Below are positions 1,497 through 60,982 of a DNA stretch of 64,000 bases, piece after piece. Position 1 is the stretch's first letter; every line of letters starts with the position of its first letter. The position numbers were made by a program, and so were the translations under genes. The notes beneath the pieces are model-generated. The model did no database searches, had not been told where the DNA came from, and saw nothing but the letters and a program-made list of their open reading frames with translations. This DNA is from a phage: the sequence record PZ452579.1; one strand, 5' to 3'.

Positions 1497-3011
1497 ATGA
1501 CTGACATTAAAGTACATTTTCATGATTTTAGTCACGTGCGCATTGAATGTGACGAAAGTACGTTTTACGAACTTCGTGACTTTTTTAGCTTTGAAGCTGA
1601 CGGGTATAAATTTAACCCAAAATATCGCTATGGGCAATGGGATGGTAGAATTCGACTTTTAGATTACAACCGTTTGTTACCATATGGACTTGTAGGACAA
1701 ATAAAAAAGTTCTGTAACAATATGAGTTATTCTGTATGGATTGACCCTAAAATCTTTGAGACTGAAGACCTTACCAGGGAAGATTTTGACGCATGGCTTT
1801 CTAAACAAGAAATTTATTCAGGCAACGCCAAAATCGAACCACATTGGTATCAAAAAGATGCAGTATATGAAGGACTAGTTAATCGTCGTCGAATTTTAAA
1901 CCTTCCGACATCAGCAGGTAAATCACTAATCCAAGCACTTTTAGCTCGGTATTATCTAGAGAACTATGAAGGTAAAATTCTCATTATCGTCCCTACAACA
2001 GCATTGACAACCCAGATGGCTAATGATTTTGTTGATTATCGCTTGTTTAGTCATTCGATGATTAAGAAAATTGGCGGTGGTGCTGATAAAGCGGACAAAT
2101 CTAAAAGCGATGCTCCAATTATTGTTGGCACATGGCAAACGGTAGTTAAGCAGCCTAAAGAATGGTTCTCTCAGTTCGGTATGATGATGAACGATGAATG
2201 CCACTTAGCAACAGGCAAAAGTATTTCTTCAATCATCTCAGGATTAAATAATTGCATGTTTAAATTCGGTTTATCTGGCTCATTAAGAGACGGAAAAGCC
2301 AATGTAATGCAGTATGTAGGCATGTTCGGCGAAATCTTCCGTCCTGTTAGCACGTCTAAATTAATGGAAGACGGACAGGTAACTGAGCTTAAGATTAATA
2401 GTATTTTCCTTCGTTATCCGGACGAATTCACCATTAAATTAAAAGGTAAAACATACCAAGAAGAAGTTAAAATTATTACCGGACTAAAACGTCGTACAAA
2501 GTGGATTGCTCAACTTTCGGTCAAATTGGCTAAGAAAGACGAGAACGCCTTTGTAATGTTTAAACACGTTACACACGGTAAAGAAATATTTGAAGCTATT
2601 AAAGAGCTTGGATATGAAAAAGTTTATTACGTATCAGGTGAAGTTGATACTGAAACACGTAACGCGCTTAAAGTCATGGCAGAAAATTGTAAAGGCATTA
2701 TTATTGTTGCATCATATGGAGTATTCTCTACTGGTATTTCAGTCAAGAATCTTCATCATGTTATTTTTGCCCATGGTGTTAAATCAAAAATTATCGTACT
2801 TCAAACCGTAGGTCGTGTGCTTCGTAAGCATGGTTCTAAAGCTGTTGCTACAGTTTGGGATCTCATAGATGACGCAGGTGTAAAACCTAAATCATTAAAT
2901 ACTAAAAAGAAGTATACTCATCTTAATTACTTGTTAAAACACGGTATTGATCGTATCCAACGTTACGCTGATGAGAAATTTAACTATGTAATGAAAACAA
3001 TTAATTTATAA
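1497..3011 (+). CDS. uvsW: UvsW recombination/repair DNA helicase
   Basis: 504 aa; near-identical over long stretches to remembered T4 UvsW (MTDIKVHFHDFSHVRI..., PTSAGKS Walker A, DECH box). Confidence 0.97.
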   Translation: MTDIKVHFHDFSHVRIECDESTFYELRDFFSFEADGYKFNPKYRYGQWDGRIRLLDYNRLLPYGLVGQIKKFCNNMSYSVWIDPKIFETEDLTREDFDAWLSKQEIYSGNAKIEPHWYQKDAVYEGLVNRRRILNLPTSAGKSLIQALLARYYLENYEGKILIIVPTTALTTQMANDFVDYRLFSHSMIKKIGGGADKADKSKSDAPIIVGTWQTVVKQPKEWFSQFGMMMNDECHLATGKSISSIISGLNNCMFKFGLSGSLRDGKANVMQYVGMFGEIFRPVSTSKLMEDGQVTELKINSIFLRYPDEFTIKLKGKTYQEEVKIITGLKRRTKWIAQLSVKLAKKDENAFVMFKHVTHGKEIFEAIKELGYEKVYYVSGEVDTETRNALKVMAENCKGIIIVASYGVFSTGISVKNLHHVIFAHGVKSKIIVLQTVGRVLRKHGSKAVATVWDLIDDAGVKPKSLNTKKKYTHLNYLLKHGIDRIQRYADEKFNYVMKTINL

Positions 3012-3023
3012 GGGCTTCGGCCC
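3012..3023 (+). other. Intercistronic GGGC-UUCG-GCCC tetraloop hairpin between uvsW and uvsW.1
   Basis: gggcttcggccc directly after uvsW stop; no U-tract; RBS of next gene follows. Confidence 0.55.
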
Positions 3024-3036
3024 TTAGGAGATAAAA

Positions 3037-3525: not shown

Positions 3526-3629
3526 ACCCCATCTTAAAACGCATTTCTTGTACACGCTTTAAACATGCTTCCATTTCTGCTAAAAGTCTAAATACTTCTT
3601 TATAATTTGTCATATTTACCCCATATCTC

Positions 3630-3842
3630 TCATATGCATATCAATGCCCATATCTTTAGAATAAAAATATTCATCAAGATATCCGGCAAATTTTCCTTTA
3701 ATATAAAGGACATCTTCACCACACGGGTGGTCGTCAGGATACGAATATCCTGACGACGTAGACGATACTTTTCCATTAAGAATTTAATTTCAGTTTCAAA
3801 TTCTTCATCATTATTAAAGGCATCTTCAATTGAATAACGCAT
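3630..3842 (-). CDS. UvsY.-1-like small protein
   Basis: 70-aa ORF directly downstream of uvsY; synteny. Confidence 0.6.
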   Translation of the reverse strand: MRYSIEDAFNNDEEFETEIKFLMEKYRLRRQDIRILTTTRVVKMSFILKENLPDILMNIFILKIWALICI

Positions 3843-11660: not shown

Positions 11661-11690
11661 AAAAAAAAAGGGAGACAACGTCTCCCTTTA
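11661..11690. terminator. Bidirectional hairpin terminator between gene 54 and the alt operon
   Basis: A9 run - gggagac aacg tctccc - ttt; GC stem flanked by A-run and T-run between convergent genes. Confidence 0.65.
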
Positions 11691-14171: not shown

Positions 14172-14191
14172 AAAAAGAGCCCGAAGGCTCT
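14172..14191 (-). terminator. UUCG-tetraloop hairpin terminator (minus strand)
   Basis: Minus RNA AGAGCC-UUCG-GGCUCU followed by UUUU. Confidence 0.55.
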
Positions 14192-14379
14192 TAATCCACA
14201 ATCCGGAGCAAAGTACGATAAACTTCAAAATTAGGGCCTTTTTCGTACTTATCAAAATTGTCCATAAAAATATGATAGGAATCGTTATTAGGAAAATCTA
14301 ATACAATTTGGGAACAAGAGGTGGAAACATCACCACCATCTTTATTAGCGACAACTACTGTTTCTAAATAAGCTTTCAT
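14191..14379 (-). CDS. Hypothetical small protein between ligase and alt
   Basis: 62-aa ORF; stop overlaps ligase start region. Confidence 0.5.
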   Translation of the reverse strand: MKAYLETVVVANKDGGDVSTSCSQIVLDFPNNDSYHIFMDNFDKYEKGPNFEVYRTLLRIVD

Positions 14380-18272: not shown

Positions 18273-18284
18273 AATTTCCTCAGT

Positions 18285-18300
18285 GGGAGCCGAAGCTCCC
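18285..18300 (-). other. Intercistronic UUCG-tetraloop hairpin
   Basis: gggagc cgaa gctccc between two co-oriented ORFs, directly upstream of RBS. Confidence 0.5.
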
Positions 18301-18307
18301 AGTTAAA

Positions 18308-19116: not shown

Positions 19117-19156
19117 TTTGTTCTCCGGTTTGTTTTATCGATTAGGTGGTACAAGT

Positions 19157-19187
19157 CTATAGTAACACATCCTACAGGAGAGTAAAC
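19157..19187 (-). promoter_or_regulatory. T4-type early promoter (minus)
   Basis: + strand ctatagta...agtaaac. Confidence 0.45.
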
Positions 19188-19217: not shown

Positions 19218-19241
19218 ACAAAAGGGAGACCGAAGTCTCCC
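19218..19241 (-). terminator. UUCG-tetraloop hairpin terminator (minus)
   Basis: gggagac cgaa gtctccc; minus RNA hairpin followed by U-rich tract; identical stem-loop to the gene 32 terminator. Confidence 0.55.
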
Positions 19242-19246
19242 TAAAA

Positions 19247-21660: not shown

Positions 21661-21936
21661 TTAAATTGCTTTGCATTCAATTTTTTGTGTACCGAAATTG
21701 ATATCACATTGGATAACTAAATCGCCGTCAAGATCAAATACCACGATGACGTGTGCAGACCCAGGGAGAAGAGTAATAGCAATAGAATCTACTTGGTCCG
21801 GGAGCAAAGCATTGAGTACATGAGTTACTTGAGCATGAACTCTGAGTTCGGCTGCATTATCAAGCACTTCAAACATATTATTAGCAATAATCTGACTGAA
21901 GACTACCTTTACAATTTCAGAATAAGTTGGGAACAT
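21661..21936 (-). CDS. Hypothetical protein (cd.x)
   Basis: 91-aa ORF. Confidence 0.55.
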   Translation of the reverse strand: MFPTYSEIVKVVFSQIIANNMFEVLDNAAELRVHAQVTHVLNALLPDQVDSIAITLLPGSAHVIVVFDLDGDLVIQCDINFGTQKIECKAI

Positions 21937-21943
21937 AATTACC

Positions 21944-22168
21944 TCAGTGTACAGTATTTACTTTAACTCGAACAACAAATTGCTCGGTCGGTTCGCCTAC
22001 AGGAACAAACTCTACATGATATTCGCCTTTGTAACGAGTATTCAGGTCGTTACGAATTTCGGTAAGCTTGTTGATTAATGTAGAACTCATATTAAGTCCC
22101 ACTAGTTTACGAAGCATTTTGTATGCTTCATCTTCGATTTCATGATGTTTATCGTACATAGTTTTCAT
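21944..22168 (-). CDS. Hypothetical protein (cd.x)
   Basis: 74-aa ORF. Confidence 0.55.
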   Translation of the reverse strand: MKTMYDKHHEIEDEAYKMLRKLVGLNMSSTLINKLTEIRNDLNTRYKGEYHVEFVPVGEPTEQFVVRVKVNTVH

Positions 22169-26373: not shown

Positions 26374-26783
26374 TACTTTTTCTTATGTTGGATATTCCAA
26401 GGCGGGTTGAACTTTTTGATAAAAAGTGGTTCTTCAAGGTCCATTGTTGCGATGGTCATTGAACCAAGTTCGTTGGTGACTGAAAGGTCAAAACATTGGC
26501 GGGCCCAGAATTCAACCTTTTTGCCTTGCATTAAGGCATCCAAAATCATAAGTGATTTTCTTGAATCTGAAGTCTGGTCTTTTCGATTTATGGCTGTTCG
26601 ATAATAGTTAATGCGTTTCTTTAAATTCTTGGTTTTACCAATATACACAAGTTCGTCATCTATAGCAATAGCATATATAACATTTTTCTTATTAGGGGCA
26701 TCAATGGTTTTAATTGTTGCATCTTCTAATAGCTCCAATTCTATATATTTAATAAAGGAATATTCGGCGGCAATATCTTTCAT
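26373..26783 (-). CDS. denA: Endonuclease II (GIY-YIG family)
   Basis: 136 aa; near-identical to T4 EndoII (VIYAIAI..VYIGKTKNL..RINYYRTAINRKD). Confidence 0.93.
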   Translation of the reverse strand: MKDIAAEYSFIKYIELELLEDATIKTIDAPNKKNVIYAIAIDDELVYIGKTKNLKKRINYYRTAINRKDQTSDSRKSLMILDALMQGKKVEFWARQCFDLSVTNELGSMTIATMDLEEPLFIKKFNPPWNIQHKKK

Positions 26784-26791
26784 AATAAAGT

Positions 26792-26805
26792 GGGACCGAA
26801 GTCCC
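26792..26805 (-). other. Intercistronic UUCG-tetraloop hairpin between nrdB and denA
   Basis: gggac cgaa gtccc. Confidence 0.45.
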
Positions 26806-26809
26806 GTCC

Positions 26810-27985
26810 TTAGAAATATTTTTTGTATGAATTGATTACATTTTGGTCTACATCATTATCAATTTGTGCAACAAGATAAGAACTGATTTCAACTTCCTGA
26901 GGAGCTGCTTGAACTAAATCAGAGTTCAGATATTCACGAATCCAAGGATAAGGATGTTTTGACGGAGCATCAGTAATTGGACACGGCAAACCACACTGTT
27001 TCATACGAGACACAGTCAAGTAATCAACAAAAGCACACATACTCTGTGTATTGATACCTGGACATGTACCGTCTTTAAAGAGGTGTGCAGCCCATTCCTT
27101 CTCTTGACTATTTACTTCCATAAAAATGTCAACTGCTTCTTGTTCACATTCTTTAGCAATTTGAACCCACTCATCGCCATCAGTACCAGATTGAAGTTGA
27201 CGGATAATGTACTGAGTACCCTTGAGATGGAGTTGTTCGTCACGAGCAATGAACTTCATAATCTTTGCATTGCCTTCCATAATTTCCATATTTTTATGGA
27301 AGTTGAAAGTACATGCAAATGATACGTAAAAACGAATAGCTTCTAAGGCGTTGATAACATGCAAACAGAGATAAAGAGACTTCATTAAATCACGCTTGGC
27401 GTTAAACATTATTTCTTCGTACATCTCAATATCATTCTGCTGACATGAGCCTATTGAACACTCATAAACTTCCTTAGCATTTTCCCAATGACGAGTCTTG
27501 ACTAGAACATCATCGTAATATTTACCTATTGATTCAGCTCGTTTCATGATTGCTTCGTCTAATACAATCTCATCAAATACTTTGGATGGATCGGTATAAA
27601 GATTTCGCATAATATGAGTATATGAACGAGAGTGAATAGTTTCACTGAATGTCCATGTTGCAACCCACGTATCTAATGAAGGGTCGGAAAGCAGTGCCAT
27701 AAGTACCGCAGATGGGGCCCTGCCTTGGATAGAATCCAATAATGATTGATACTTAAGATTGTTTGTAAAGATGTCCTGTTGGAACTGAGGAAGCTTATTG
27801 AACTGTGCAGAGTCCAACATCAAGTTTACCTCTTCGGGGCGCCAGAAAAATGACAAGGATTTTTCTATAAGTTCTTCAAAAACTTTATGACGCTGAATAT
27901 CATACCGTGCAAGACCAAGACCAGAACCAAAGAACATCGGTTCATTCAAAACATCGACTTGTTGTGTGTTAAAAACTGTACTCAT
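26810..27985 (-). CDS. nrdB: Ribonucleotide reductase small subunit (intron-less)
   Basis: 391-aa single ORF with R2 di-iron ligand motifs; no group I intron or I-TevIII ORF. Confidence 0.93.
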   Translation of the reverse strand: MSTVFNTQQVDVLNEPMFFGSGLGLARYDIQRHKVFEELIEKSLSFFWRPEEVNLMLDSAQFNKLPQFQQDIFTNNLKYQSLLDSIQGRAPSAVLMALLSDPSLDTWVATWTFSETIHSRSYTHIMRNLYTDPSKVFDEIVLDEAIMKRAESIGKYYDDVLVKTRHWENAKEVYECSIGSCQQNDIEMYEEIMFNAKRDLMKSLYLCLHVINALEAIRFYVSFACTFNFHKNMEIMEGNAKIMKFIARDEQLHLKGTQYIIRQLQSGTDGDEWVQIAKECEQEAVDIFMEVNSQEKEWAAHLFKDGTCPGINTQSMCAFVDYLTVSRMKQCGLPCPITDAPSKHPYPWIREYLNSDLVQAAPQEVEISSYLVAQIDNDVDQNVINSYKKYF

Positions 27986-31863: not shown

Positions 31864-32447
31864 TTATATACACTCTCAGTAATTTCGGTGAGTTCATCGA
31901 TTCTGTAGTAATGAGATTCTACCATAGAACGTTGAAGCATAATATCTTGGATGAAATCTTTATCAAGTTGAACATCTGAATTAACACGACATTTCTTAAT
32001 GATTTTAGTCATCACGATTTCATCGGCATAAGGCAGGGCTTGTTTTAATAGAGCAGGGCCACCAATAACAGATACATCAACATGTTCAGTAGAAAGTTTA
32101 AACGGTACGTCAGTTGCAGGGCTAAACAGGTTAATTTCACCACCCATTACCAAGGTAATAAATTCAGATTGGGTGATATAGAAATGCGCAAATTCGTTGG
32201 TTTTGGACCTAGGCAGTTTTCTGGCCATATCAGTGACAACCACATGAGTACGATCTGGGAGTAGACGAGGTAATGATGCAAAAGTCTTAGCACCCATAAC
32301 CATTACAGTGTTTTTAGTGCGAGCAACAAAGTTACTCATATCTTGTTTGATATGCTTCCATGGAAGTCCATCACCTAATCCAAAAGCATATTCCAGTTTA
32401 TCATCAACTGTTTTAGACGGTGCGCATGCGAATACTAATTTAAGCAT
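31860..32447 (-). CDS. frd: Dihydrofolate reductase
   Basis: 195 aa; DHFR motifs GLGDGLPW and MGAKTFASLP; matches T4 Frd. Confidence 0.93.
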   Translation of the reverse strand: MLKLVFACAPSKTVDDKLEYAFGLGDGLPWKHIKQDMSNFVARTKNTVMVMGAKTFASLPRLLPDRTHVVVTDMARKLPRSKTNEFAHFYITQSEFITLVMGGEINLFSPATDVPFKLSTEHVDVSVIGGPALLKQALPYADEIVMTKIIKKCRVNSDVQLDKDFIQDIMLQRSMVESHYYRIDELTEITESVYK

Positions 32448-32688
32448 TTTTAAGTCCTTTAATAACTTTTTGGATTTGTGATTTAGACGAAACTAGTTCT
32501 GTCTGAATTTCCCAACCATCGGTTTGGTCAAATGTTGTAACACAAACACGAGGTTTTGTTGTGTATCGTCCAGACAAATCAAATGCATCACCAATGAATT
32601 CGGCCAAATCCGGATGGTCTAAATTAACTGAAGTATAAACTTCATATCCGACATCAGCGCCTTGAGAGTATTCAACAACAACATTCAT
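32440..32688 (-). CDS. Hypothetical protein (frd.1 position)
   Basis: 82-aa ORF. Confidence 0.55.
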   Translation of the reverse strand: MNVVVEYSQGADVGYEVYTSVNLDHPDLAEFIGDAFDLSGRYTTKPRVCVTTFDQTDGWEIQTELVSSKSQIQKVIKGLKNA

Positions 32689-32690
32689 AA

Positions 32691-32939
32691 TTATTTCCTC
32701 AGATTTTTCTTAACAACTTTCCAATCAGCTTTAAACGATTCAACATCAGAGTGGTGAATCCAGAATCCTGCACTTTCACCATCTTCGTAGAGTGGACATC
32801 CATCACATTCTTCGTTCCAACCCATTTCACGTAAAGCTTCTTCAGCTTGTTCAAGGAGTTCAGCGTCTTTACCAACGATGTTGAAGTACCATTTACCTCT
32901 AACTTCAGAATCTTTGATGCTCTGGCGTTGCAATCTCAT
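32691..32939 (-). CDS. Hypothetical protein (frd.2 position)
   Basis: Start set at ATG 32939 (MRLQRQS...) with GGAG RBS; the track start at 32954 corresponds to a GTG codon. Confidence 0.55.
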   Translation of the reverse strand: MRLQRQSIKDSEVRGKWYFNIVGKDAELLEQAEEALREMGWNEECDGCPLYEDGESAGFWIHHSDVESFKADWKVVKKNLRK

Positions 32940-33000
32940 TTTATTCTCCTTCACTTTTATTTGATAGGGCTATGTTATAGTAGCCCTATCTTGTTATAAA

Positions 33001-33393
33001 CTACTTTTTAAAAGTTTTTTGCAAAAGTTTGATGATTTCGTCGACGTTGGTTTCATCTACGATACAATGGATTTTTGTTACACCTAAAGTTATACCTTCG
33101 TTAGTAGGTTGAGGCTTTACTAAATCTACCTCAGTAAAGTATTTGAACTCATCATAATAAATCTCAAAATAAGTTTCAATTTCACCACCAGCAGAACATA
33201 CAGTACCATCTTCCATAGTTACACTTACTACGTTTGACGTATCGCTATCATAATCAGGTTCCATTCCGTTTACAACAAAACTAGGCCCGTGGAGTTCAAT
33301 CAATTTTAACATCTTAGCGTTATTGTGTGGTGCTTCTTGAACAAAGTCGTCTTTAAATAAAGGGTTAATGATATAAGATTTTCCGATTTCCAT
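33001..33393 (-). CDS. Hypothetical protein (frd.3 position)
   Basis: 130-aa ORF. Confidence 0.6.
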   Translation of the reverse strand: MEIGKSYIINPLFKDDFVQEAPHNNAKMLKLIELHGPSFVVNGMEPDYDSDTSNVVSVTMEDGTVCSAGGEIETYFEIYYDEFKYFTEVDLVKPQPTNEGITLGVTKIHCIVDETNVDEIIKLLQKTFKK

Positions 33394-33421
33394 TTTGATT
33401 TCCTCATGTTGTTGATAGGTC

Positions 33422-33451
33422 TATACTAACACATCCAGGGAAGAAGTAAAC
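33422..33451 (-). promoter_or_regulatory. T4-type early promoter (minus) in a gataggtctata PeSL-like context
   Basis: + strand tatact...agtaaac. Confidence 0.45.
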
Positions 33452-33482
33452 AACTTTTTCGGCAATTTACAGATACTCAAAA

Positions 33483-33500
33483 GGGAGACCGAAGTCTCCC
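33483..33500 (-). terminator. Gene 32 transcription terminator (UUCG-tetraloop hairpin plus U-tract)
   Basis: gggagac cgaa gtctccc 7 nt after the gene 32 stop; minus RNA has UUCG loop and downstream U-rich tract. Confidence 0.7.
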
Positions 33501-33506
33501 GATTTA

Positions 33507-34409
33507 TTATAGACCAGCTAACAGGTCATCGAGGTCGCCATCATCAGAGGATGAGGTAGAGCTCATGAAGTCATCTTCAGTTTTTGCAGAACTAAAGGCT
33601 TCCATGTCTTTATCAAAATCGTCAAGGTCAGAAGCAACTTTATCTGCAACAGAAGCTGCTGCGGCTGCTGCACCACCAAGAGCGGCAGTACCAAGAACCT
33701 TAGCGAAAGATTCATTTAATTTTTCAAAGGATTTGAACTGGTCTTTAGCCGTCAAAGTAGTAAGGTCTACCATCTGGTCATATAGTTCTTTCTGGAATGC
33801 TTCGTCATTAATACGAGGAATTTCAGATTGACCCAAGAATTTAGATTCGTCATAGTTACTAAAACCGGAAACCTGCTTAGCTTTCAGAACGAAGTTAGCA
33901 CCTTCAAACGGACAAGTAACATCAACTGGAGTTTCACCCATTTCGGTATCAACAGCAATCATTGCATTGATTTTGTCCCAAATCTTTTTGCCGAAACGAT
34001 ATTTAAATACTTTACCTTCGTTATCTGGAGCTTGAGGGTCTTTAACAACCAGAATATTAGCCCAATAAGAAGTTTTACGTTTCAGTTGAGAATATTCAGT
34101 TTTGTTGGTATTGTACAGGTCATTTTTACTAATGTACTGACATACAGGACAAGAGTCATAATCACCATGTGTAGAAGAGCAATTTTCAATATACCATTTA
34201 CCATTTTTCTTGAAACCGTGGTTAACAAGAATTGCAAATGGTAGTGCATCATCAGTTTTTGCTGGCAAGAAACGAATTACCGCTTGACCATTACCGGATG
34301 CATCTAGCTTCAGCTTCCATTCGCCTTTATCTTCTGAAGAGAAACCTTTGTTACCATTCAGTTTAGCCATTTGAGCAGCGAGGTCAGCAGTAGATTTACG
34401 TTTAAACAT
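33507..34409 (-). CDS. 32: Single-stranded DNA-binding protein gp32
   Basis: 300 aa; matches T4 gp32 ([23 protein letters not shown]..., acidic C-terminus DDLLAGL). Confidence 0.96.
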
Positions 34410-34480
34410 TATATTTACCTTTATTTAGATTATTTAATTTATTTACAGTTGGTTGCTACGACACTTATACCTCGTAGCTG
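34410..34480 (-). promoter_or_regulatory. Gene 32 translational operator: hairpin/pseudoknot region followed by an unstructured A/U-rich leader
   Basis: Minus-strand leader gcuacgagguauaagugucguagc hairpin then repeated UAAAUA elements up to the AUG, as in the T4 gp32 autoregulatory site. Confidence 0.5.
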
Positions 34481-34488
34481 GTATGATT

Positions 34489-34496
34489 TATTTATA
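34489..34496 (-). promoter_or_regulatory. T4 late promoter TATAAATA (minus) upstream of gene 32
   Basis: tatttata on + strand ~80 nt upstream of ATG. Confidence 0.5.
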
Positions 34497-34524
34497 AAGT
34501 AATTTTAACACACAAGAATAAAGC

Positions 34525-35178
34525 TTAATACTTACATGATTTGATTGTTTCTATGAACAATTTCTTAGCAGCATTTCCATCGATTTGAAGTATTTTTCGA
34601 TATGCCTTTAATTTGGTAGAATAATTTTGCCAGACTAAGTTATCGGTGAGTTCGTCGTGCTTATCTATAATATTCAAAAACGAGTCCAACAATAAGAAAG
34701 TTTCAAATGAAATTATATTGCTTTGTAGCAATTTAAATATGTAGCTCGACTGAACGTTGTTATTATAATCAAATATATCTTGAAGCGCACTAACTTCAAC
34801 TTTCTTACTGAAATAGTAGATGTTACGTACATCTTCAGCAAACGTCTCCTTGGCTTGTTTGAGACGTCCAATATATTCCCTATAGAAAACTAATGCATCA
34901 GCGTCCGATATCTCACCAATCCATGCGTCTTGGTTAGCAACTAAGTTGCTTATGAATATCAAGGTGAGTTCCTTCAATTTATATTTCTCTGCTAGTTTTT
35001 CAAAGAAATATTTATCTCGGCGTTTTTGATACGCATTATCCGAAACACGCATGCACCAGTTATATTTGATTACGTCATACCGACCATTAAAATGTTGTTT
35101 GCACATCAAGTATAGTTTGTATACCGATTTTCCGTTAATATAACGTTCTCCATCAGGAGGCATGCGTATTTTAATCAT
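34525..35178 (-). CDS. 59: gp59 helicase loader
   Basis: 217 aa; strong match to T4 gp59 (MIKIRMPPDGERYINGKSVYKLYLM...). Confidence 0.95.
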   Translation of the reverse strand: MIKIRMPPDGERYINGKSVYKLYLMCKQHFNGRYDVIKYNWCMRVSDNAYQKRRDKYFFEKLAEKYKLKELTLIFISNLVANQDAWIGEISDADALVFYREYIGRLKQAKETFAEDVRNIYYFSKKVEVSALQDIFDYNNNVQSSYIFKLLQSNIISFETFLLLDSFLNIIDKHDELTDNLVWQNYSTKLKAYRKILQIDGNAAKKLFIETIKSCKY

Positions 35179-36805: not shown

Positions 36806-39800
36806 ATGGTTGACATCAAACGTAAGTTCAGGGCCGAAGATGGTCTTGACGCAGGCGGTGATAAGATAGTTAACGTTGCGCTTGCTGACCGCACAGTTGG
36901 CACCGATGGCGTGAACGTTGACTTTTTGGTGCAAGAAAACACCGTACAGAATTATGACGAGACGCGCGCGTATACAAAAGATTTTATTGTTCTTTATGAT
37001 AATCGTTTTTATCAAGCTTTAAGCGATATTCCAGCTCCGGCGGGCCCTTTCTCTTTGGCTAAATGGAAGGCAACTCGTACAGATGCAGAATGGATTACAG
37101 TTCAAGGCGGAGATTTCCAATTATCAGTAGGTAACTCTATTGCGGTTGATACTTCAGCTGGCACTGATATTAATTTCACTTTGCCTCAAAATCCTTTAGA
37201 TGGCGATACAGTTATTTTGTCTGATATTGGCGGTAGAGTAGGCTATGTAAAAGTTCAAATTACTGCAGCGGCTCAAAGTATTGTAAACTTTAGAGGACAA
37301 CAGGTTCGTTCAGTTTTAATGACGCACCCAAAATCTAAAATGGTCTTCATTTTTAGCAACCGCCTATGGCAAATGTATGTTTCTGATTACGAACGTAATG
37401 CAGTCACAGTAACTCCTGCTACGCCATATCAAGCGCAACCTAATGATTTTATCATTCGACGTTTTACATCAGCCGCTCCTATTAATATTACATTGCCTCG
37501 TAATGCTAATAATGGCGATATTATTAATTTAGTGGATTTAGACAAATTAAACCCATTATATCACACAATTGTCAAAACTTACGATGATACAACTTCTATA
37601 CGAGAAGCTGGTGTTCATGTAGCAGAAGGACGTAATACTGCGGAAGCATTCTTTGTTTATGATTCTGCCAATAGTTTATGGCGTGTTTGGGAAGGTGACC
37701 AGAAATCTCGTTTACGTATAGTTCGTAATGATACTGATTTACGCCCTAATGAAGAAGTTCTTGTTTTTGGAACTAATAATGATACAATCTCGACGGTAAA
37801 TCTTACTTTGCCTACAGATATTTTGTCTGGCGATACTGTTAAAATATCGTTGAATTATATGCGTAAAGGGCAAACTGTAAAAATTAAAGCTGCTGAAGGC
37901 GATACAATTGCTAGCAGTATTTCTTTATTACAGTTCCCAAAACGTTCGGAGTATCCACCTGATGCACAATGGGTTTCTGTTAGTGAGCTGGAATTTAATG
38001 GTGATACTTCGTATGTACCTGTACTTGAGTTAGCTTATATAGAAGATTATTCATCTGAAACAAAATATTGGGTAGTTCAACAAAACACCGTAACCGTCGA
38101 ACGAGTCGATGCATCGAGCAATAACACTCGAGCTCGTTTAGGTGTTATTGCTCTTGCTTCTCAAGCGCAAGCAAATGTCGATTTAGAAAATGCTCCTGGT
38201 AAAGAACTGGCTATTACTCCGGAAACATTAGCAAATCGTACAGCAACTGAAACTCGTCGTGGTATTGCTCGTATTGCAACAACTGCACAAGTTAACCAGA
38301 ATACCGATTTTGCATTCCAAGACGACTTGATTATTTCTCCTAAGAAATTGAACGAACGTACAGCAACTGAAACCCGTAGAGGTGTTGCTGAAGTTGCAAC
38401 TCAGGCTGAAACTAATGCTGGCACAGATGATACCACTATTATTACTCCTAAGAAATTGGATGCCCGTCAAGGTTCTGAAGTTTTATCTGGTATTGTAAAA
38501 TACACATCTACGACTGGTACTACAGCTGCTACTATTCGTGGTAATGCTGGGACTAACGTTTATAACAAAGCCGTAGATAATTTAACTATTTCTCCAAAGG
38601 CTCTTGACCAGTATAAAGCTACCCCTACTCAGCAGGGTGCAGTAATTCTTGCTATTGAAAGTGAAGTTATCGCTGGCGAATCACAAGCTGGTTGGGCTAA
38701 TGCTGTAGTGACCCCTGAAACTCTGCATAAGAAAACTTCTACTGATGGACGTATTGGTTTAATTGAAATTGCTACGCAAGCAGAAACTAACACTGGAACT
38801 GATTATACTAGAGCAGTAACGCCTAAGACGTTAAATGATAGGAAAGCTACGGAAGGATTATCTGGCATAGCCGAAATTGCTACGCAAGTTGAATTTGATA
38901 CTGGAACTGACGATACTCGTATCTCGTCTCCACTGAAAATTAAAACTCATTTTGATTCTTCTGGCCGTACTAGTGTTAATTCTGATTCCGGACTTATTGA
39001 AGAAGGAACCTTGTGGAACCATTATACTCTTGATATTTCTAAAGCAAATGAAACACAACGCGGTACACTTCGCGTAGCGACCCAGGCAGAATCTAATGCA
39101 GGAACTTTAGATGATGTTCTTATTACTCCTAAAAAGCTTTTAGGGACTAAGTCCACTGAAACGTCTGAAGGCGTAATTAAGGTTGCTACTCAGGCTGAAA
39201 CTGTAACAGGAACTTCTGCTAATACTGCTGTATCACCTAAGAATTTAAAATGGATTGTTCAATCAGAACCATCATGGACTGCTACTACGGCAATTCGTGG
39301 ATTCGTTAAAACTTCATCTGGTTCTATTACATTTGTCGGTGACGATACTCAAGGTAATACCCAGGATTTGAATCTTTATGAGAAAAATAGTTATGCTATT
39401 TCTCCATATGAATTAAACCGTGTACTTGCTAACTACTTACCGTTGAAAGCTAAAGCAGCTGATAGTAATTTGTTAGATGGTCTAGATTCTCTTCAGTTCA
39501 TCCGTAGAGACATCGACCAAACGGTTAATGGTTCTTTAAGTCTTACTAAACAGACCAACCTGAGTGCTCCTTTAGTATCTACAAGCACCGCTTCTTTTGG
39601 TTCCGAAGCATCTGTTACTCGTAGATTAACTCTTAATGACTCTAGCGGTTCCGAAATAGTTTTCACTAAAGGAACCCAATCTCTTAGTAATAAAGAGAAT
39701 TTCGTTGTTAGAGCATGGGGTAATAGCGCTACAGATGGTGACCGTGATACAGTATTTGAAGCGGGTGACGAAACCGGATACCATTTCTATTCTCAGCGCG

Positions 39801-40647: not shown

Positions 40648-41772
40648 ATGGAAAAATTTATGGCAAGGTTTGGACAGGGATACGTCCAAACGCCGTTTTT
40701 ATCGGAAAGCAATTCAGTTAGATTTAAGCTAAGTATAGCGGGTTCATGCCCGCTTTCAACAACTAATCCGTATATTTTGTTCCAAAACGAGCCTTTAGGG
40801 TTGCAGTCTTTTGGTATTGGACTAAATGTTAGGGTAATAAATCCGGAAAATGGAACTATAGTTGATAGTAAATTATACAATTTTGCGCCTACAAATAATG
40901 CAACTTCAGCTGCATTTATTTCGTTTGTTAATACATACGCAGATAATTTCATTTTCGCATTTATTTCTAATAACAAATTTAATTTGCCGCCAGAAATAAT
41001 TGAATGGTTTAAAGCTGCTGGGAGTTCAGTTATACCGTCAATTGAAGTTGCTAGTCTTGTTGATATTTCATATTCAGCGTTTTATGTTTCAGGTAAAAAT
41101 ACTATTGCATTAGAACACATAAAATACAGTAATAAGAAAACAATTTCTGATTACGCAACTCCATTAGATATTGTATATGACTCTATTGCTGATATAGGTG
41201 CTACCGGCTATCCTAGACGTACATATGAAGCTCTAGAAACGTTTTTATCTCCTGTTGGAGGAACTAACAATGAAATAAAAAGGATGCCTACATCATCCCT
41301 TGTTACTCCTATCGCAAACTATGGATTAAAACCTACAGATTTTCTTTATTTGAAATTTCAATTAATGGCTGATGAAGAATTATTAGAGGAAGGAACCACA
41401 AGACTTTCAATTCGTTTCTTTAAGACTCCATCTAGCTCTCCTATATCATCTAAAGATATAAACTTTGATGGAACTGCCGGGGAGTGGAAGTTATATGAAG
41501 AATACGTTGAAATACCAGCTGAAGCTGATGGCTTTACAGTATATTGTTACCGTACGGCCTCAGTCGGTCAAGGTGGACTAAGAAATGTTATTTTCACTGA
41601 AGTATCATGTAACGGAAGTATAGCAAAACCCGCCGAGTTTGGTATAAACGGTATTCGTGTTAATTACATTGATGAATCATTAACCGGTAATGATATAATG
41701 GACTTGCCTACTCAGTTATCTAACGACACAGGTAAGGTATTTGGGCAGGAATTTAAAGAGTACACAGAATAA
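40648..41772 (+). CDS. 35: Long tail fiber hinge protein gp35
   Basis: 374 aa (T4 372 aa); synteny. Confidence 0.88.
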   Translation: MEKFMARFGQGYVQTPFLSESNSVRFKLSIAGSCPLSTTNPYILFQNEPLGLQSFGIGLNVRVINPENGTIVDSKLYNFAPTNNATSAAFISFVNTYADNFIFAFISNNKFNLPPEIIEWFKAAGSSVIPSIEVASLVDISYSAFYVSGKNTIALEHIKYSNKKTISDYATPLDIVYDSIADIGATGYPRRTYEALETFLSPVGGTNNEIKRMPTSSLVTPIANYGLKPTDFLYLKFQLMADEELLEEGTTRLSIRFFKTPSSSPISSKDINFDGTAGEWKLYEEYVEIPAEADGFTVYCYRTASVGQGGLRNVIFTEVSCNGSIAKPAEFGINGIRVNYIDESLTGNDIMDLPTQLSNDTGKVFGQEFKEYTE

Positions 41773-41773
41773 A

Positions 41774-41793
41774 GGAGACTTCGGTCTCCTTTT
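41774..41793 (+). terminator. UUCG-tetraloop hairpin terminator after gene 35 (plus strand)
   Basis: ggagac ttcg gtctcc followed by tttt. Confidence 0.65.
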
Positions 41794-41797
41794 CGCG

Positions 41798-41805
41798 TAT
41801 AAATA
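41798..41805 (+). promoter_or_regulatory. T4 late promoter for genes 36-37-38
   Basis: TATAAATA 26 nt upstream of gene 36 ATG. Confidence 0.6.
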
Positions 41806-45808: not shown

Positions 45809-45813
45809 TAAGA

Positions 45814-45827
45814 GGGGCTTCGGCCCC
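45814..45827 (+). other. Intercistronic GGGGC-UUCG-GCCCC hairpin between genes 37 and 38
   Basis: ggggcttcggcccc directly before the GGAGG RBS of gene 38. Confidence 0.55.
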
Positions 45828-45839
45828 TTGGAGGTTTAT

Positions 45840-50085: not shown

Positions 50086-50123
50086 TTTATTTCTCCAATT
50101 TGGTTGTTTTGTTTTGATAGGTC

Positions 50124-50153
50124 TATAATATCATGTTTGAAGCACATGTAAAC
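50124..50153 (-). promoter_or_regulatory. T4-type early promoter (minus) for motA in a gataggtctata PeSL-like context
   Basis: + strand tataat/ataata - 16-17 nt - tgtaaac. Confidence 0.55.
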
Positions 50154-50170: not shown

Positions 50171-50194
50171 GCACAAAAGGGAGCCGAAGCTCCC
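50171..50194 (-). terminator. UUCG-tetraloop hairpin terminator downstream of gene 52
   Basis: gggagc cgaa gctccc; minus RNA hairpin followed by UUUUGUGC. Confidence 0.55.
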
Positions 50195-50270
50195 TAATCA
50201 TGTTTGTCCAACCAATACAGCCAAATCACTAGTGCAGCTATTGCACTGAGAAATCCTAAGGCTAGGGCAC

Positions 50271-51600: not shown

Positions 51601-51741
51601 TCACCATATTAATGAACGAATAACCATTATAACATCTGAAATGAAAAGCACTACTTGGATTAGTCCAAACATCACACCATAGTACAGAACCGTAAGCAAC
51701 AACAAGAGCCCGAAGGCTCCTGCTAAGATTTTCTTAAACAT
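51601..51741 (-). CDS. Small hydrophobic membrane protein (46 aa), 52.1/ac/stp region; absent from track
   Basis: Manual translation MFKKILAGAFGLLLLLTVLYYGVMFGLIQVVLFISDVIMVIRSLIW; stop 4 nt before gene 52 ATG. Confidence 0.45.
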   Translation of the reverse strand: MFKKILAGAFGLLLLLTVLYYGVMFGLIQVVLFISDVIMVIRSLIW

Positions 51742-54041: not shown

Positions 54042-54063
54042 AAAAAAGGGGGCCGAAGTCCCC
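54042..54063 (-). terminator. Hairpin terminator downstream of rIIB
   Basis: gggggccgaagtcccc preceded on + strand by an A6 run (U-tract on minus RNA). Confidence 0.5.
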
Positions 54064-58659: not shown

Positions 58660-58677
58660 AAGCTCCCGAAGGAGCTT
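58660..58677 (-). other. UUCG-tetraloop hairpin overlapping the gene 39 stop codon
   Basis: aagctcc cgaa ggagctt. Confidence 0.5.
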
Positions 58678-60493
58678 AGGACATCCATTCTTTACGAAGT
58701 TCTGAATCATCACCCATCAACATTTCAAAGAGTTCTTTCCAATTTTCAGGAAGTTTAACTACGTCGTACACAGGGTTCTGAATCATTTCACGATATTCTG
58801 ACTTTTCAAGGGAGCCTAATCCCTTGATGTATCGAATACTATGCTTAGGAAGCGTATCTTTAACTTCTTCATACTCAGCTACAGTATAAAACCATTTTTG
58901 AGTTTTGCCAATTTGTGCAATAATTACAGGTGTTTTAACAAAGCGAATACGTCCTTGTTCAAACAATTCAGGCCAATTACTAAAGAAAGCAAGCAAAGCC
59001 GGATAGATACTTCCAAGACCGTCATGATCGGCATCGGTCATAATTGCAATATTACGATAGTTCGTATTCTCTGCCTTTTCACCAAGAATAAGACCCGTGA
59101 TAGCACAGATATCAAAGAGCTCTTTGTTCTTCATCATATCAGCATATGACATACCCCAGCTATTCATCACCTTACCACGTAATGGGAATCCACCGTGTAG
59201 TTCACGGTCACGAACATCAATGAGATAACCAATTGCCGAATCACCTTCTGTTAAGAACAATGTCGTATCTGCATCTTTACCACATTGGTTAGCTTTAATA
59301 TGCTTATGAACCTTAGCTTTAGTTGCCTTTTTAGCTGCTTTAGTTTCTGCAGCCTTTTCTGCCGCCAATTTACGAGCTAATGCGGCTTCAACAATAGGCA
59401 TAATCAAGGCTTCGTTTTTAAGAAGTGCCTGAGCAATTTTCTTAGCATCTAATTGGATATGATTACGAATATCACCATACGTTGACGTTAAACGTTCTTT
59501 AGTCTGAGAATCAAAACGCATGTTGCTCATGTCTCTAATAAACATCAACATTGTGAGACATTCTTTAACACGAGCTTTAGTGACTTCAATACCCTTATAT
59601 TTCTTTTTAATACCGGGCAAAAGATGTTCGCAGATATCATCCATTACACATTCAACATGATGACCACCATTTTTAGTATGGATGTTATTCACATAAGTTA
59701 AATGACGGAAGCCATCTGGTGATGTTGTGAATGCTATAGAGACTTTATCATTTTCTTGAATGATGTTATCTTCACCAAATTGTTTAGCAAATCGTTTAAA
59801 ATTACCATCAACCTTTTTACCATTAAATGTGAACTTGATATCAGGATAAACGACTGCCAATGTTTGAAGTCGGTCTAAAGTAATATCTAAATAAATTTGA
59901 GATAAATTATGCTCTTCAAATGAAGTGAAATCAGGAGTGAAGATTACTTTAGTGCCTTTACCTTTAGATTTCTTAGAAGACCATGATTTGTTTTCCATTC
60001 CGTTTGAACAGTTAACAGTGATTTCATTTTCGCCATCTGACGTGATGCCTGTAAACAACGTAGAGAAGATATTAGTTAAACTACTCCCGACGCCGTTCAT
60101 ACCACCAGTCTTGCGTTCAGAGTCATCACCAAAGTTACCACCGGCCTTTGGAATAGTCCAGGCTGCTACAGGCCCAGGAATTTGTTCACCTGTTTGGTCG
60201 GTAACTAAACCTTGAGGAATACCACGTCCGTTATCTTCCACCGAAACTTGATTATTTTTAATTTGCACATCAATTTTATTTGCAAACTTAAATGACGTAC
60301 GAATAGCTTCATCAACCGAGTTGTCAATAATCTCATCGATTAATTTAACCAGACCAGGAACATATTCAACTTGTTGATATTTACCAAACAAAAAACGCTC
60401 ATGTGCTTCTTTAGCAGAAGAACCAATATACATACCACTACGTTTCTTAATATGTTCTACATCTGATAATACCTTAATTTCATTTTTAATCAT
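58676..60493 (-). CDS. 39: DNA topoisomerase II large subunit gp39, uninterrupted GyrB-like form
   Basis: 605 aa; GHKL ATPase motif IIDNSVDEA, TOPRIM EGDSA and DADHDG; full length in one ORF with no gene 60 or bypass element. Confidence 0.95.
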   Translation of the reverse strand: MIKNEIKVLSDVEHIKKRSGMYIGSSAKEAHERFLFGKYQQVEYVPGLVKLIDEIIDNSVDEAIRTSFKFANKIDVQIKNNQVSVEDNGRGIPQGLVTDQTGEQIPGPVAAWTIPKAGGNFGDDSERKTGGMNGVGSSLTNIFSTLFTGITSDGENEITVNCSNGMENKSWSSKKSKGKGTKVIFTPDFTSFEEHNLSQIYLDITLDRLQTLAVVYPDIKFTFNGKKVDGNFKRFAKQFGEDNIIQENDKVSIAFTTSPDGFRHLTYVNNIHTKNGGHHVECVMDDICEHLLPGIKKKYKGIEVTKARVKECLTMLMFIRDMSNMRFDSQTKERLTSTYGDIRNHIQLDAKKIAQALLKNEALIMPIVEAALARKLAAEKAAETKAAKKATKAKVHKHIKANQCGKDADTTLFLTEGDSAIGYLIDVRDRELHGGFPLRGKVMNSWGMSYADMMKNKELFDICAITGLILGEKAENTNYRNIAIMTDADHDGLGSIYPALLAFFSNWPELFEQGRIRFVKTPVIIAQIGKTQKWFYTVAEYEEVKDTLPKHSIRYIKGLGSLEKSEYREMIQNPVYDVVKLPENWKELFEMLMGDDSELRKEWMS

Positions 60494-60515: not shown

Positions 60516-60540
60516 ATTCTATCATCCGAAATCTAAAGCA
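60516..60540 (-). promoter_or_regulatory. MotA-dependent middle promoter for gene 39
   Basis: Minus strand TGCTTTA - 12 nt - TAGAAT, then GAGGAG RBS. Confidence 0.5.
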
Positions 60541-60556
60541 AAAAGGGCCGAAGCCC
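60541..60556 (-). terminator. UUCG-tetraloop hairpin terminator upstream of the gene 39 promoter
   Basis: gggc cgaa gccc; minus RNA hairpin followed by UUUU. Confidence 0.55.
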
Positions 60557-60982
60557 TTATTTAAATTTAATTTTCTGAAGTGCATCAATTGCAGCCAAAC
60601 GCCCTTGTTCACTTTTAACTGTAATGACTACATCGCCTGATACGATCACCGAACCATCAACAAATTCTATAGAGCCTTTTTTGAAATCGACAGCTGTATC
60701 TGGTTCCGGAACTTCTTCAAAGAATTTAAATTCTGCACCATAAAGCAGAATATCACCTTGCATACTATGAATAGTTCGGCCGTAATCGCCTACGGCTTCT
60801 ACAGCAATAATCGAAACGCCGTAACCAATCATCTCTTCCACAATAAAATCTTTGGACAATAAAGTAGTATGCAGATTAGTATTAAGACGTTTACCAGTCG
60901 TATTAAGAATTCTCAAGAAATTATCTTCCTGTCCTTTGATAATACGATATTTCTTACCAACTTCAAAACCTTTAAAAGCCAT
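60557..60982 (-). CDS. Hypothetical protein (39.1/39.2 position)
   Basis: 141-aa ORF. Confidence 0.6.
   Translation of the reverse strand: MAFKGFEVGKKYRIIKGQEDNFLRILNTTGKRLNTNLHTTLLSKDFIVEEMIGYGVSIIAVEAVGDYGRTIHSMQGDILLYGAEFKFFEEVPEPDTAVDFKKGSIEFVDGSVIVSGDVVITVKSEQGRLAAIDALQKIKFK

Follow-up and report, generated by a model that had tools for sequence, protein, structure and literature searches.

The window analysed here is a stretch of 64,000 nucleotides of phage DNA (sequence record PZ452579.1). Positions 32000-35000 are 97.8% identical to Mosigvirus genomes (RB69-like T-even phages), and the gene order is that of T4: uvsW through 25-54, alt, 30, cd, pseT, nrdB/A, td, frd, 32, 59, 33, rnh, 34-38, t, motA, 52, rIIB/A and 39. 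Gene 32 corresponds to ORF 33507-34409 on the minus strand and gene 35 to ORF 40648-41772 on the plus strand. Both genes had been assigned correctly in an earlier note on this DNA, made from the letters alone, and the genome is of T4 type. Gene 39 was found as one ORF of 605 amino acids (58676-60493, minus strand), equivalent to the fused 39 + 60, so the window lacks the split at the mobA/60.1 insertion.

Short G+C-rich hairpins with a C(UUCG)G cap are distributed over this map (Table 1). They were collected using a strict scan, in which a TTCG loop was required and the stem was extended through Watson-Crick or G-U pairs. Strands were called from transcription blocks built from large ORFs, together with the annotations of T4 and of the relative MM02; a greedy ORF map (30-aa minimum) was dropped because it placed spurious small ORFs over hairpins. 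The earlier note had listed 12 such hairpins. All of them proved real, and 11 were recovered by the strict scan, the missed one being 54048-54063, which carries a mismatch. A thirteenth hairpin, absent from that list, was found at 51700-51725. Twelve of the 13 are intergenic, though only ~7% of the window is non-coding.

Table 1. C(UUCG)G hairpins of the window, a triloop relative and adjacent promoter motifs
Feature	Position	Strand	Context
Hairpin UAAGGGC-UUCG-GCCCUUA, without U-tract	3009..3026	+	Includes uvsW stop codon, abuts SD GGAG of uvsW.1
Bidirectional terminator-like hairpin AAAGGGAGAC-GUU-GUCUCCCUUU, then U7	11667..11689	both	Junction of convergent gene 54 (+) and alt.-3-like ORF (-)
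Hairpin AAGAGCC-UUCG-GGCUCUU, then UUU	14175..14192	-	alt.1/alt junction; followed by late-promoter-like CATAAATATAAAT (approximate match)
Hairpin UGGGAGC-UUCG-GCUCCCA, without U-tract	18284..18301	-	30.7/30.6 junction, 2 nt ahead of SD GAGG
Early-promoter-like TTTACT-N16-TACTATAGAC	19155..19186	-	Downstream of the 19223 hairpin
Hairpin AGGGAGAC-UUCG-GUCUCCCU, then UUUGUG	19223..19242	-	30.9/30.8 junction; 18-nt core equals gene 32 terminator
Hairpin GGGAC-UUCG-GUCCC, without U-tract	26792..26805	-	Between nrdB stop/SD-like UAAGGA and denA AUG, the latter 8 nt downstream
Early-promoter-like TTTACT-N16-TAGTATAGAC	33419..33450	-	3' of gene 32 hairpin, ahead of SD GAGG and ATG of ORF 33001-33393
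Gene 32 terminator hairpin GGGAGAC-UUCG-GUCUCCC, then UUUU	33483..33500	-	6 nt past gene 32 stop codon
Gene 35 terminator hairpin AAAGGAGAC-UUCG-GUCUCCUUU	41771..41792	+	Overlaps gene 35 stop codon
Late promoter motif TATAAATA, perfect	41798..41805	+	For gene 36; 5 nt past the 41771 hairpin
Hairpin GAGGGGC-UUCG-GCCCCUU, without U-tract	45812..45829	+	Just past gene 37 stop codons, abuts SD GGAGG of gene 38
Early-promoter-like TTTACA-N16-TATTATAGAC, TG-extended	50121..50152	-	Ahead of motA; 50152 promoter also in consensus scan
Hairpin AGGGAGC-UUCG-GCUCCCU, then UUUGUGCAUUUUU	50178..50195	-	Upstream of motA
11-bp C(UUCG)G hairpin including G-U pairs	51700..51725	-	Inside gene 52.1 CDS (51601-51741), codons 6-13
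Hairpin GGGGAC-UUCG-GCCCCC, one A.C mismatch or bulge, then UUUUUUCUUU (U6)	54048..54063	-	After rIIB
Hairpin AAGCUCC-UUCG-GGAGCUU, U-tract ambiguous	58660..58677	-	Overlaps stop codon of fused gene 39; SD AAGG 15 nt downstream
MotA-box match UUUGCUUUA	60534-60542	-	Immediately 3' of the 60543 hairpin
Hairpin AAGGGC-UUCG-GCCCUU	60543..60558	-	Upstream of gene 39

Mapping of the flanks divided the hairpins into two groups. Seven of them (14175, 19223, 33483, 41771, 50178, 54048 and 60543) are followed by a U-tract, which is short (4-6 U) and often interrupted. Within 0-40 nt of six of these seven lies a promoter motif of the next unit, which is early and sigma-70-like at 19223, 33483 and 50178, a MotA box at 60543, and late at 41771 and, by an approximate match, at 14175. 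A U-tract is lacking in five or six hairpins, which sets them apart from canonical terminators; three of these (3009, 18284 and 45812) stand directly ahead of a Shine-Dalgarno sequence. The same two groups, U-tract hairpins and hairpins right before a ribosome-binding site, had been proposed in the earlier note, and the flanks agree with this division except at 26792, where the hairpin separates the Shine-Dalgarno sequence from the start codon. A consensus scan for promoters and terminators was rejected as evidence, since it gave the same counts as shuffled sequence and put several UUCG hairpins on the wrong strand, both hairpin flanks being AT-rich; its sole yield was the 11667 hairpin and the 50152 promoter.

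The 11667 hairpin has the structure A8-GGGAGAC-AAC/GUU-GUCUCCC-T10, that is, the stem of the gene 32 terminator with a triloop and not UUCG, as is expected where both strands are transcribed. The single coding exception lies in gene 52.1, whose product, a membrane protein of 46 aa, clearly has a homologue in T4. T4 52.1 carries a different hairpin, GGGCUA-UUCAU-UAGCCC, at the same codons, though the amino acids differ, and in the relative MM02 the 52.1 hairpin is labelled a terminator while the gene itself is omitted. An RNA structure may be conserved here within a gene, upstream of gene 52.

Abundance, strand bias and folding energy

Following 300 dinucleotide-preserving shuffles of the window, perfect C(UUCG)G hairpins with a stem of at least 5 bp were found 0.34 times on average and twice at most, compared to 12 times in the window itself. 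On all 13 hairpins the UUCG is on the transcribed strand, as the earlier note had stated for its 12, and in ~590 kb of T-even relatives 55 intergenic UUCG hairpins were sense and none antisense. Tetraloops were tallied for intergenic hairpins with a stem of at least 5 bp and at least three G-C pairs; UUCG accounted for 11 of the 15 sense-strand hairpins in the window and for 55 of the 109 distinct ones in the ~590 kb of relatives. In these T-even loci (L002-L031), the sense tetraloops UGGA (7) and CGGA (6) also recurred in intergenic regions, and UCCG was, correspondingly, seen eight times antisense.

The bare hexamer CTTCGG is only modestly enriched in the window, with 27 occurrences against 16.5 expected. 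In coding regions 14 are antisense and one is sense, a skew that is most likely an effect of codon usage; none of the antisense ones has a stem, so that the strand finding stands. The hairpin was not equally frequent on the non-transcribed strand or in coding regions, the pattern which the earlier note had named as counting against the family.

Stems measure 5-11 bp, with nearest-neighbour ΔG values from -7.1 to -15.9 kcal/mol. Sense and antisense energies were also compared as a test of strand choice, using ViennaRNA, and this test was discarded: the sense hairpin was only ~0.9 kcal/mol better than its antisense CGAA counterpart. Computed thermodynamics alone thus leave the absolute strand bias unexplained. 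The 5' arms are rich in purines (0.7-0.9) and many contain GGAG or GAGG.

Covariation and orthologous junctions

Around gene 32 homologues, 80 loci with 38-100% protein identity were collected. A C(UUCG)G hairpin stands just behind the gene 32 stop codon in the majority of the T-even relatives, and in some of the distant ones too, on at least seven unrelated stems: GGGAGAC, GGAGCC, GGGACC, GGCUACUC, GGAACC, GGACUC and GGGAUC. Loop variants are UCCG, UACG and UUUG, with CUAGA/CUAGU, GAAA and others in other lineages. An alignment of 15 distinct sequences had 105 of 105 cells paired, with double compensatory changes in six of the seven pairs; in this set the closing C-G is invariant and the loop is UUCG, UCCG or UACG. 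The rows were chosen as the best hairpin at the orthologous position, a selection to be kept in mind in reading the covariation score of 0.653, which compares to 0.19 in shuffles (0/500 reaching the observed value) and collapses when the partner column is slid.

In T4, UUCG hairpins with different stems were found at the orthologous alt.1/alt, 30.9/30.8 and 37/38 junctions, accompanied at alt.1/alt by a perfect TATAAATA and placed at 37/38 between the Shine-Dalgarno sequence and the AUG. Imperfect UUCG hairpins occur at 35/36 (GGGACCC-UUCG-GGUUCCC) and rIIB/denB.1. The 30.7/30.6 junction has GAGGGGC-UUCA-GCCCCUU, with a UUCA loop, and 39.1/39 has AAAGGCC-UUCG-GGCCUUU followed by AGCUUUA, in a similar arrangement with the MotA box. 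The T4 gene 32 terminator has a CUAGA loop where the window has UUCG. Over the ~44 kb shared by the two phages, the strict scan found 10 perfect copies in the window and five in T4.

At the nrdB/denA junction (26783-26812, minus strand), UAAGGA is followed by 1-2 nt, a hairpin of 14 nt, 8 nt and AUG. Some 14 distinct relatives have stop/SD UAAGGA(G), a hairpin, a spacer of 7-9 nt and AUG in this order, with 12-16 nt from loop to AUG. Most of them have a UUCG loop, while T4-like genomes have GCAA and a single relative has UUUG. The hairpin, aligned over 13 distinct sequences, had 65 of 65 cells paired and double changes in three of the five pairs. A split design, with a hairpin between Shine-Dalgarno sequence and AUG, has been documented for T4 genes 38 and 25 (review PMC3014915). 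denA is similar in that an SD-like AAGGA lies ~24 nt from the AUG and the hairpin cuts the effective spacing to ~10 nt. It differs in being another gene, unnamed in that review. Next to genes 38 and 25, this junction is apparently a third case of a split ribosome-binding site; its hairpin would shorten the spacer and bring the denA Shine-Dalgarno sequence and AUG to a functional distance. The T4 RefSeq entry starts denA at a GTG upstream of the hairpin. This start is probably wrong, and if the split reading is true, T4 denA has been mis-annotated from the upstream GTG.

At both gene 32 and nrdB/denA the stems covary with 100% pairing while a UNCG loop and its C-G closing pair are kept, which argues for selection on RNA. 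The modest enrichment of the bare hexamer would suit an artefact of chance or composition, and short repeated hairpins could also be the remains of REP- or MITE-like mobile repeats. Against both origins, the shuffles give far fewer hairpins than the window and the stems covary at orthologous sites. Moreover, promoter cassettes apart, the flanks had no apparent shared sequence or terminal repeats, the three cassette loci being the only ones formally aligned. The whole window, scanned against Rfam at gathering thresholds, had no match to a repeat or RNA family; we read this empty result as the hairpins being too small for a curated family. An origin by chance or from mobile repeats, which the absolute strand bias of the loop also speaks against, was rejected as exceedingly improbable.

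A different explanation starts from the absolute strand bias and the near-invariant loop, which exceed the computed energy advantage: the UUCG loop or the GGAG stem could be a specific protein signal, recognized by RegB, RNase E, an RNAP-associated factor or a phage RNA-binding protein. The purine-rich 5' arms with their GGAG or GAGG would be in line with this. However, CUUCGG is described, in the account given in PMC4371310, as an autonomous element to which no proteins bind. Orthologous loops are swapped for UACG, UCCG, GCAA, GAAA and CUAGA, which points to selection for stable loops generally, and the GGAG of the stem is base-paired and so a poor substrate for RegB, assuming that RegB needs an unpaired target. 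We consider a protein signal very unlikely.

Identical copies and promoter cassettes

The 18-mer GGGAGACCGAAGTCTCCC is identical at 19224-19241 and 33483-33500, in agreement with the earlier note, according to which the gene 32 terminator recurs at the former site. The note had also described the gene 35 terminator as the same stem in opposite orientation. This stem (41773-41790) is indeed inverted in the DNA; two of its 18 positions differ, though, with a compensatory A-U in place of the outer G-C, and in the RNA its orientation is that of the gene 32 copy. The stem GGAGAC...GTCTCC occurs four times in the window, against 0.01 expected, one occurrence being 11667-11689. Stems are also common to two further pairs of sites, 3009 with 60543 and 18284 with 50178.

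Over ~100-130 nt, the intergenic regions at 19223, 33483 and 50178 can be aligned with a mean column identity of 74%. They share the order hairpin, UUUUG, A-tract, GTTTAC, N16, TAnTATAGAC, and the early-promoter pattern TTTACW-N16-TAnTATAGAC was found four times in the window against zero expected. The recurring stems and purine-rich 5' arms are such that stem identity could come from a limited stem vocabulary, from homogenisation of the cassettes, or from both.

These three cassettes resemble the promoter-early stem-loop (PeSL) of T4-type phages, which in the T4/PST pair has its stem-loop just upstream of a TTTACW...TAYWAT promoter (PMC4122927; also PMC2839356). They have the stem-loop, the AT-rich tract, the TTTACW -35, a TAYWAT-type -10, the Shine-Dalgarno sequence and the start codon, and they too are conserved over ~100 bp across unrelated intergenic sites. 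They differ in their promoter spacing of N16, and neither a UUCG loop nor strand specificity belongs to the PeSL as published (no occurrence of UUCG or tetraloop in PMC2839356 or PMC4122927). T4 itself has ~40 identical nt, cttttttattttaaaaattttttcacaaaacggtttacaa, after different hairpins at 32/frd.3 and motA.1/motA (21803-21949 and 38603-38731 of locus L082), which is a PeSL-type repeat within T4.

PeSL-mediated recombination has been published for T4-type phages (Arbiol et al. 2010, PMC2839356; Comeau et al. 2014, PMC4122927). The hairpins might thus act primarily at the DNA level, as repeated recombination sites of PeSL type for modular shuffling, the RNA hairpin being secondary. The common cassette of the three loci, the recurrent GGAGAC...GTCTCC stem and the stretch repeated within T4 all favour this. 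Only three of the 13 hairpins lie in cassettes, however, and at orthologous sites it is the stem that varies freely and the loop that is retained, when a site depending on homology would require the reverse. A cruciform or homology patch is symmetric in DNA and cannot place UUCG on the mRNA strand in every hairpin of the window and of its relatives. Symmetric DNA-level functions therefore fail on the strand bias of the loop, which places the primary selection on RNA. A DNA-cruciform function was rejected on these grounds, and recombination sites as the primary function are improbable; recombination is more plausibly an additional effect of some of the hairpins than what the whole family is for.

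Relation to known elements and proposed roles

The first description of CUUCGG hairpins in T4 mRNA is that of Tuerk et al. (1988, PNAS 85:1364), as cited in passages of PMC4371310 and PMC8948821. Unusually high measured thermal stability and stops of reverse transcriptase are among the marks of that class. According to the passage in PMC8948821, hairpins of the form (X)2-8 CUUCGG (Y)2-8 are especially abundant in T4 intergenic regions. The window hairpins have the same loop, closing pair and short inverted repeats, are mostly intergenic, come from the same phage group and occupy several orthologous junctions. They differ from those of T4 in belonging to a Mosigvirus (RB69-like), in having other stems at every orthologous site and in their larger number of perfect copies. 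By all criteria that apply at the level of sequence, the family is of the T4 CUUCGG class; it is an ordinary one, already known for T-even phages.

UUCG hairpins also occur in another T4 context. The translational-bypass hairpin of T4 gene 60 (T4 2834-2857) is likewise capped by C(UUCG)G, a 'stabilizing tetraloop' (PMC3014915). Unlike the window hairpins, it is located in a coding gap, and its action is on the ribosome. No such coding-gap hairpin was found in the fused gene 39 of the window.

Seven of the 13 hairpins resemble Rho-independent terminators in having a G+C-rich stem, a tetraloop and a 3' U-tract right after a stop codon; the five or six without a U-tract differ from these and abut a ribosome-binding site. 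UUCG and GNRA tetraloops are reportedly over-represented in Rho-independent terminators of E. coli and its phages, a finding attributed to d'Aubenton-Carafa, Brody and Thermes in 1990.

We consider it highly probable that the UUCG hairpins are RNA-level punctuation elements of T-even mRNAs, placed at the boundaries of genes and transcription units. Beyond the observed sequence, strand bias, position and covariation, effects on termination, stabilisation and translation are suggested by the anatomy of the hairpins and by published work on T4. With its exceptional stability, the C(UUCG)G cap would allow a G+C-rich stem of 5-9 bp to fold fast and to stay folded in an AT-rich transcript. The seven hairpins with a U-tract would act as intrinsic terminators or attenuators, each ending a transcription unit and probably shielding the released 3' end from exonucleases; together with the next promoter they would form a terminator-promoter cassette or boundary. 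In a literature search no relevant mapping of T4 transcript 3' ends was found, and none for the phage of the window. The hairpins that fill the space from stop codon to the next Shine-Dalgarno sequence (3009, 18284, 45812 and probably 58660) are most likely barriers to 3' exonucleases or folding insulators, which would keep the downstream ribosome-binding site open.

A more far-reaching version of the punctuation reading is a code specific to the lineage. The Mosigvirus cassettes would be kept identical (19223 and 33483, with the stem also at 41771 and 11667) by ongoing gene conversion, UUCG would have spread beyond the T4 junctions, and the loop would be chosen for more than stability, for example resistance to or recognition by host or phage RNases; its modest part is nrdB/denA as a third, apparently undescribed split region. 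We give this version little credence. As it stands, the analysis is a rediscovery, from raw sequence, of the feature behind the recognition of UUCG as the most stable small RNA hairpin. The pattern extends to RB69-like phages at higher density and opens no new question. What the analysis adds is modest: numbers for strand bias and covariation, the higher density found in the RB69 lineage, the cassettes around the identical copies and the conserved split region of denA.

For the annotation of T-even genomes, the hairpins are reliable markers of the boundaries of genes and transcription units. Three annotation problems were met at hairpins: 52.1 in MM02, the GTG of T4 denA and the T4 uvsW/uvsW.1 fusion. 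In the last case, the hairpin of the uvsW/uvsW.1 junction in T4 NC_000866 (~114.19 kb; ~2680-2700 of locus L083) has two G's of the 5' arm missing (AAG--CTTCGGCCCTT). The T4 record has a single fused uvsW of 587 aa, and the window has separate products of 504 aa and 76 aa. A sequencing compression at the hairpin may have fused the two genes in the T4 record.

A related hairpin lies within uvsY.-1 (ORF 3630-3842), at 3730-3757 on the minus strand. Its stem of 12 bp is perfect, its loop is A(UUCG)U, and the sequence codes for RQDIRIL. The T4 counterpart has 9 bp (114805-114826), and the RB69 ortholog has one stem position changed. Compared to RB69 and T4, one nucleotide is missing from the window at the 3' foot of the stem, which shifts the frame of uvsY.-1 and leaves the conserved C-terminal half in another frame; either the gene is a true pseudogene or the deletion is an error of sequencing at the hairpin. 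In the 3' half of uvsY.-1 (~3600-3730, minus strand), ~108 nt are 100% identical in the window phage, RB69 and T4, with flanks of ~80-90%, which suggests a recent exchange or a constrained nucleic-acid element.
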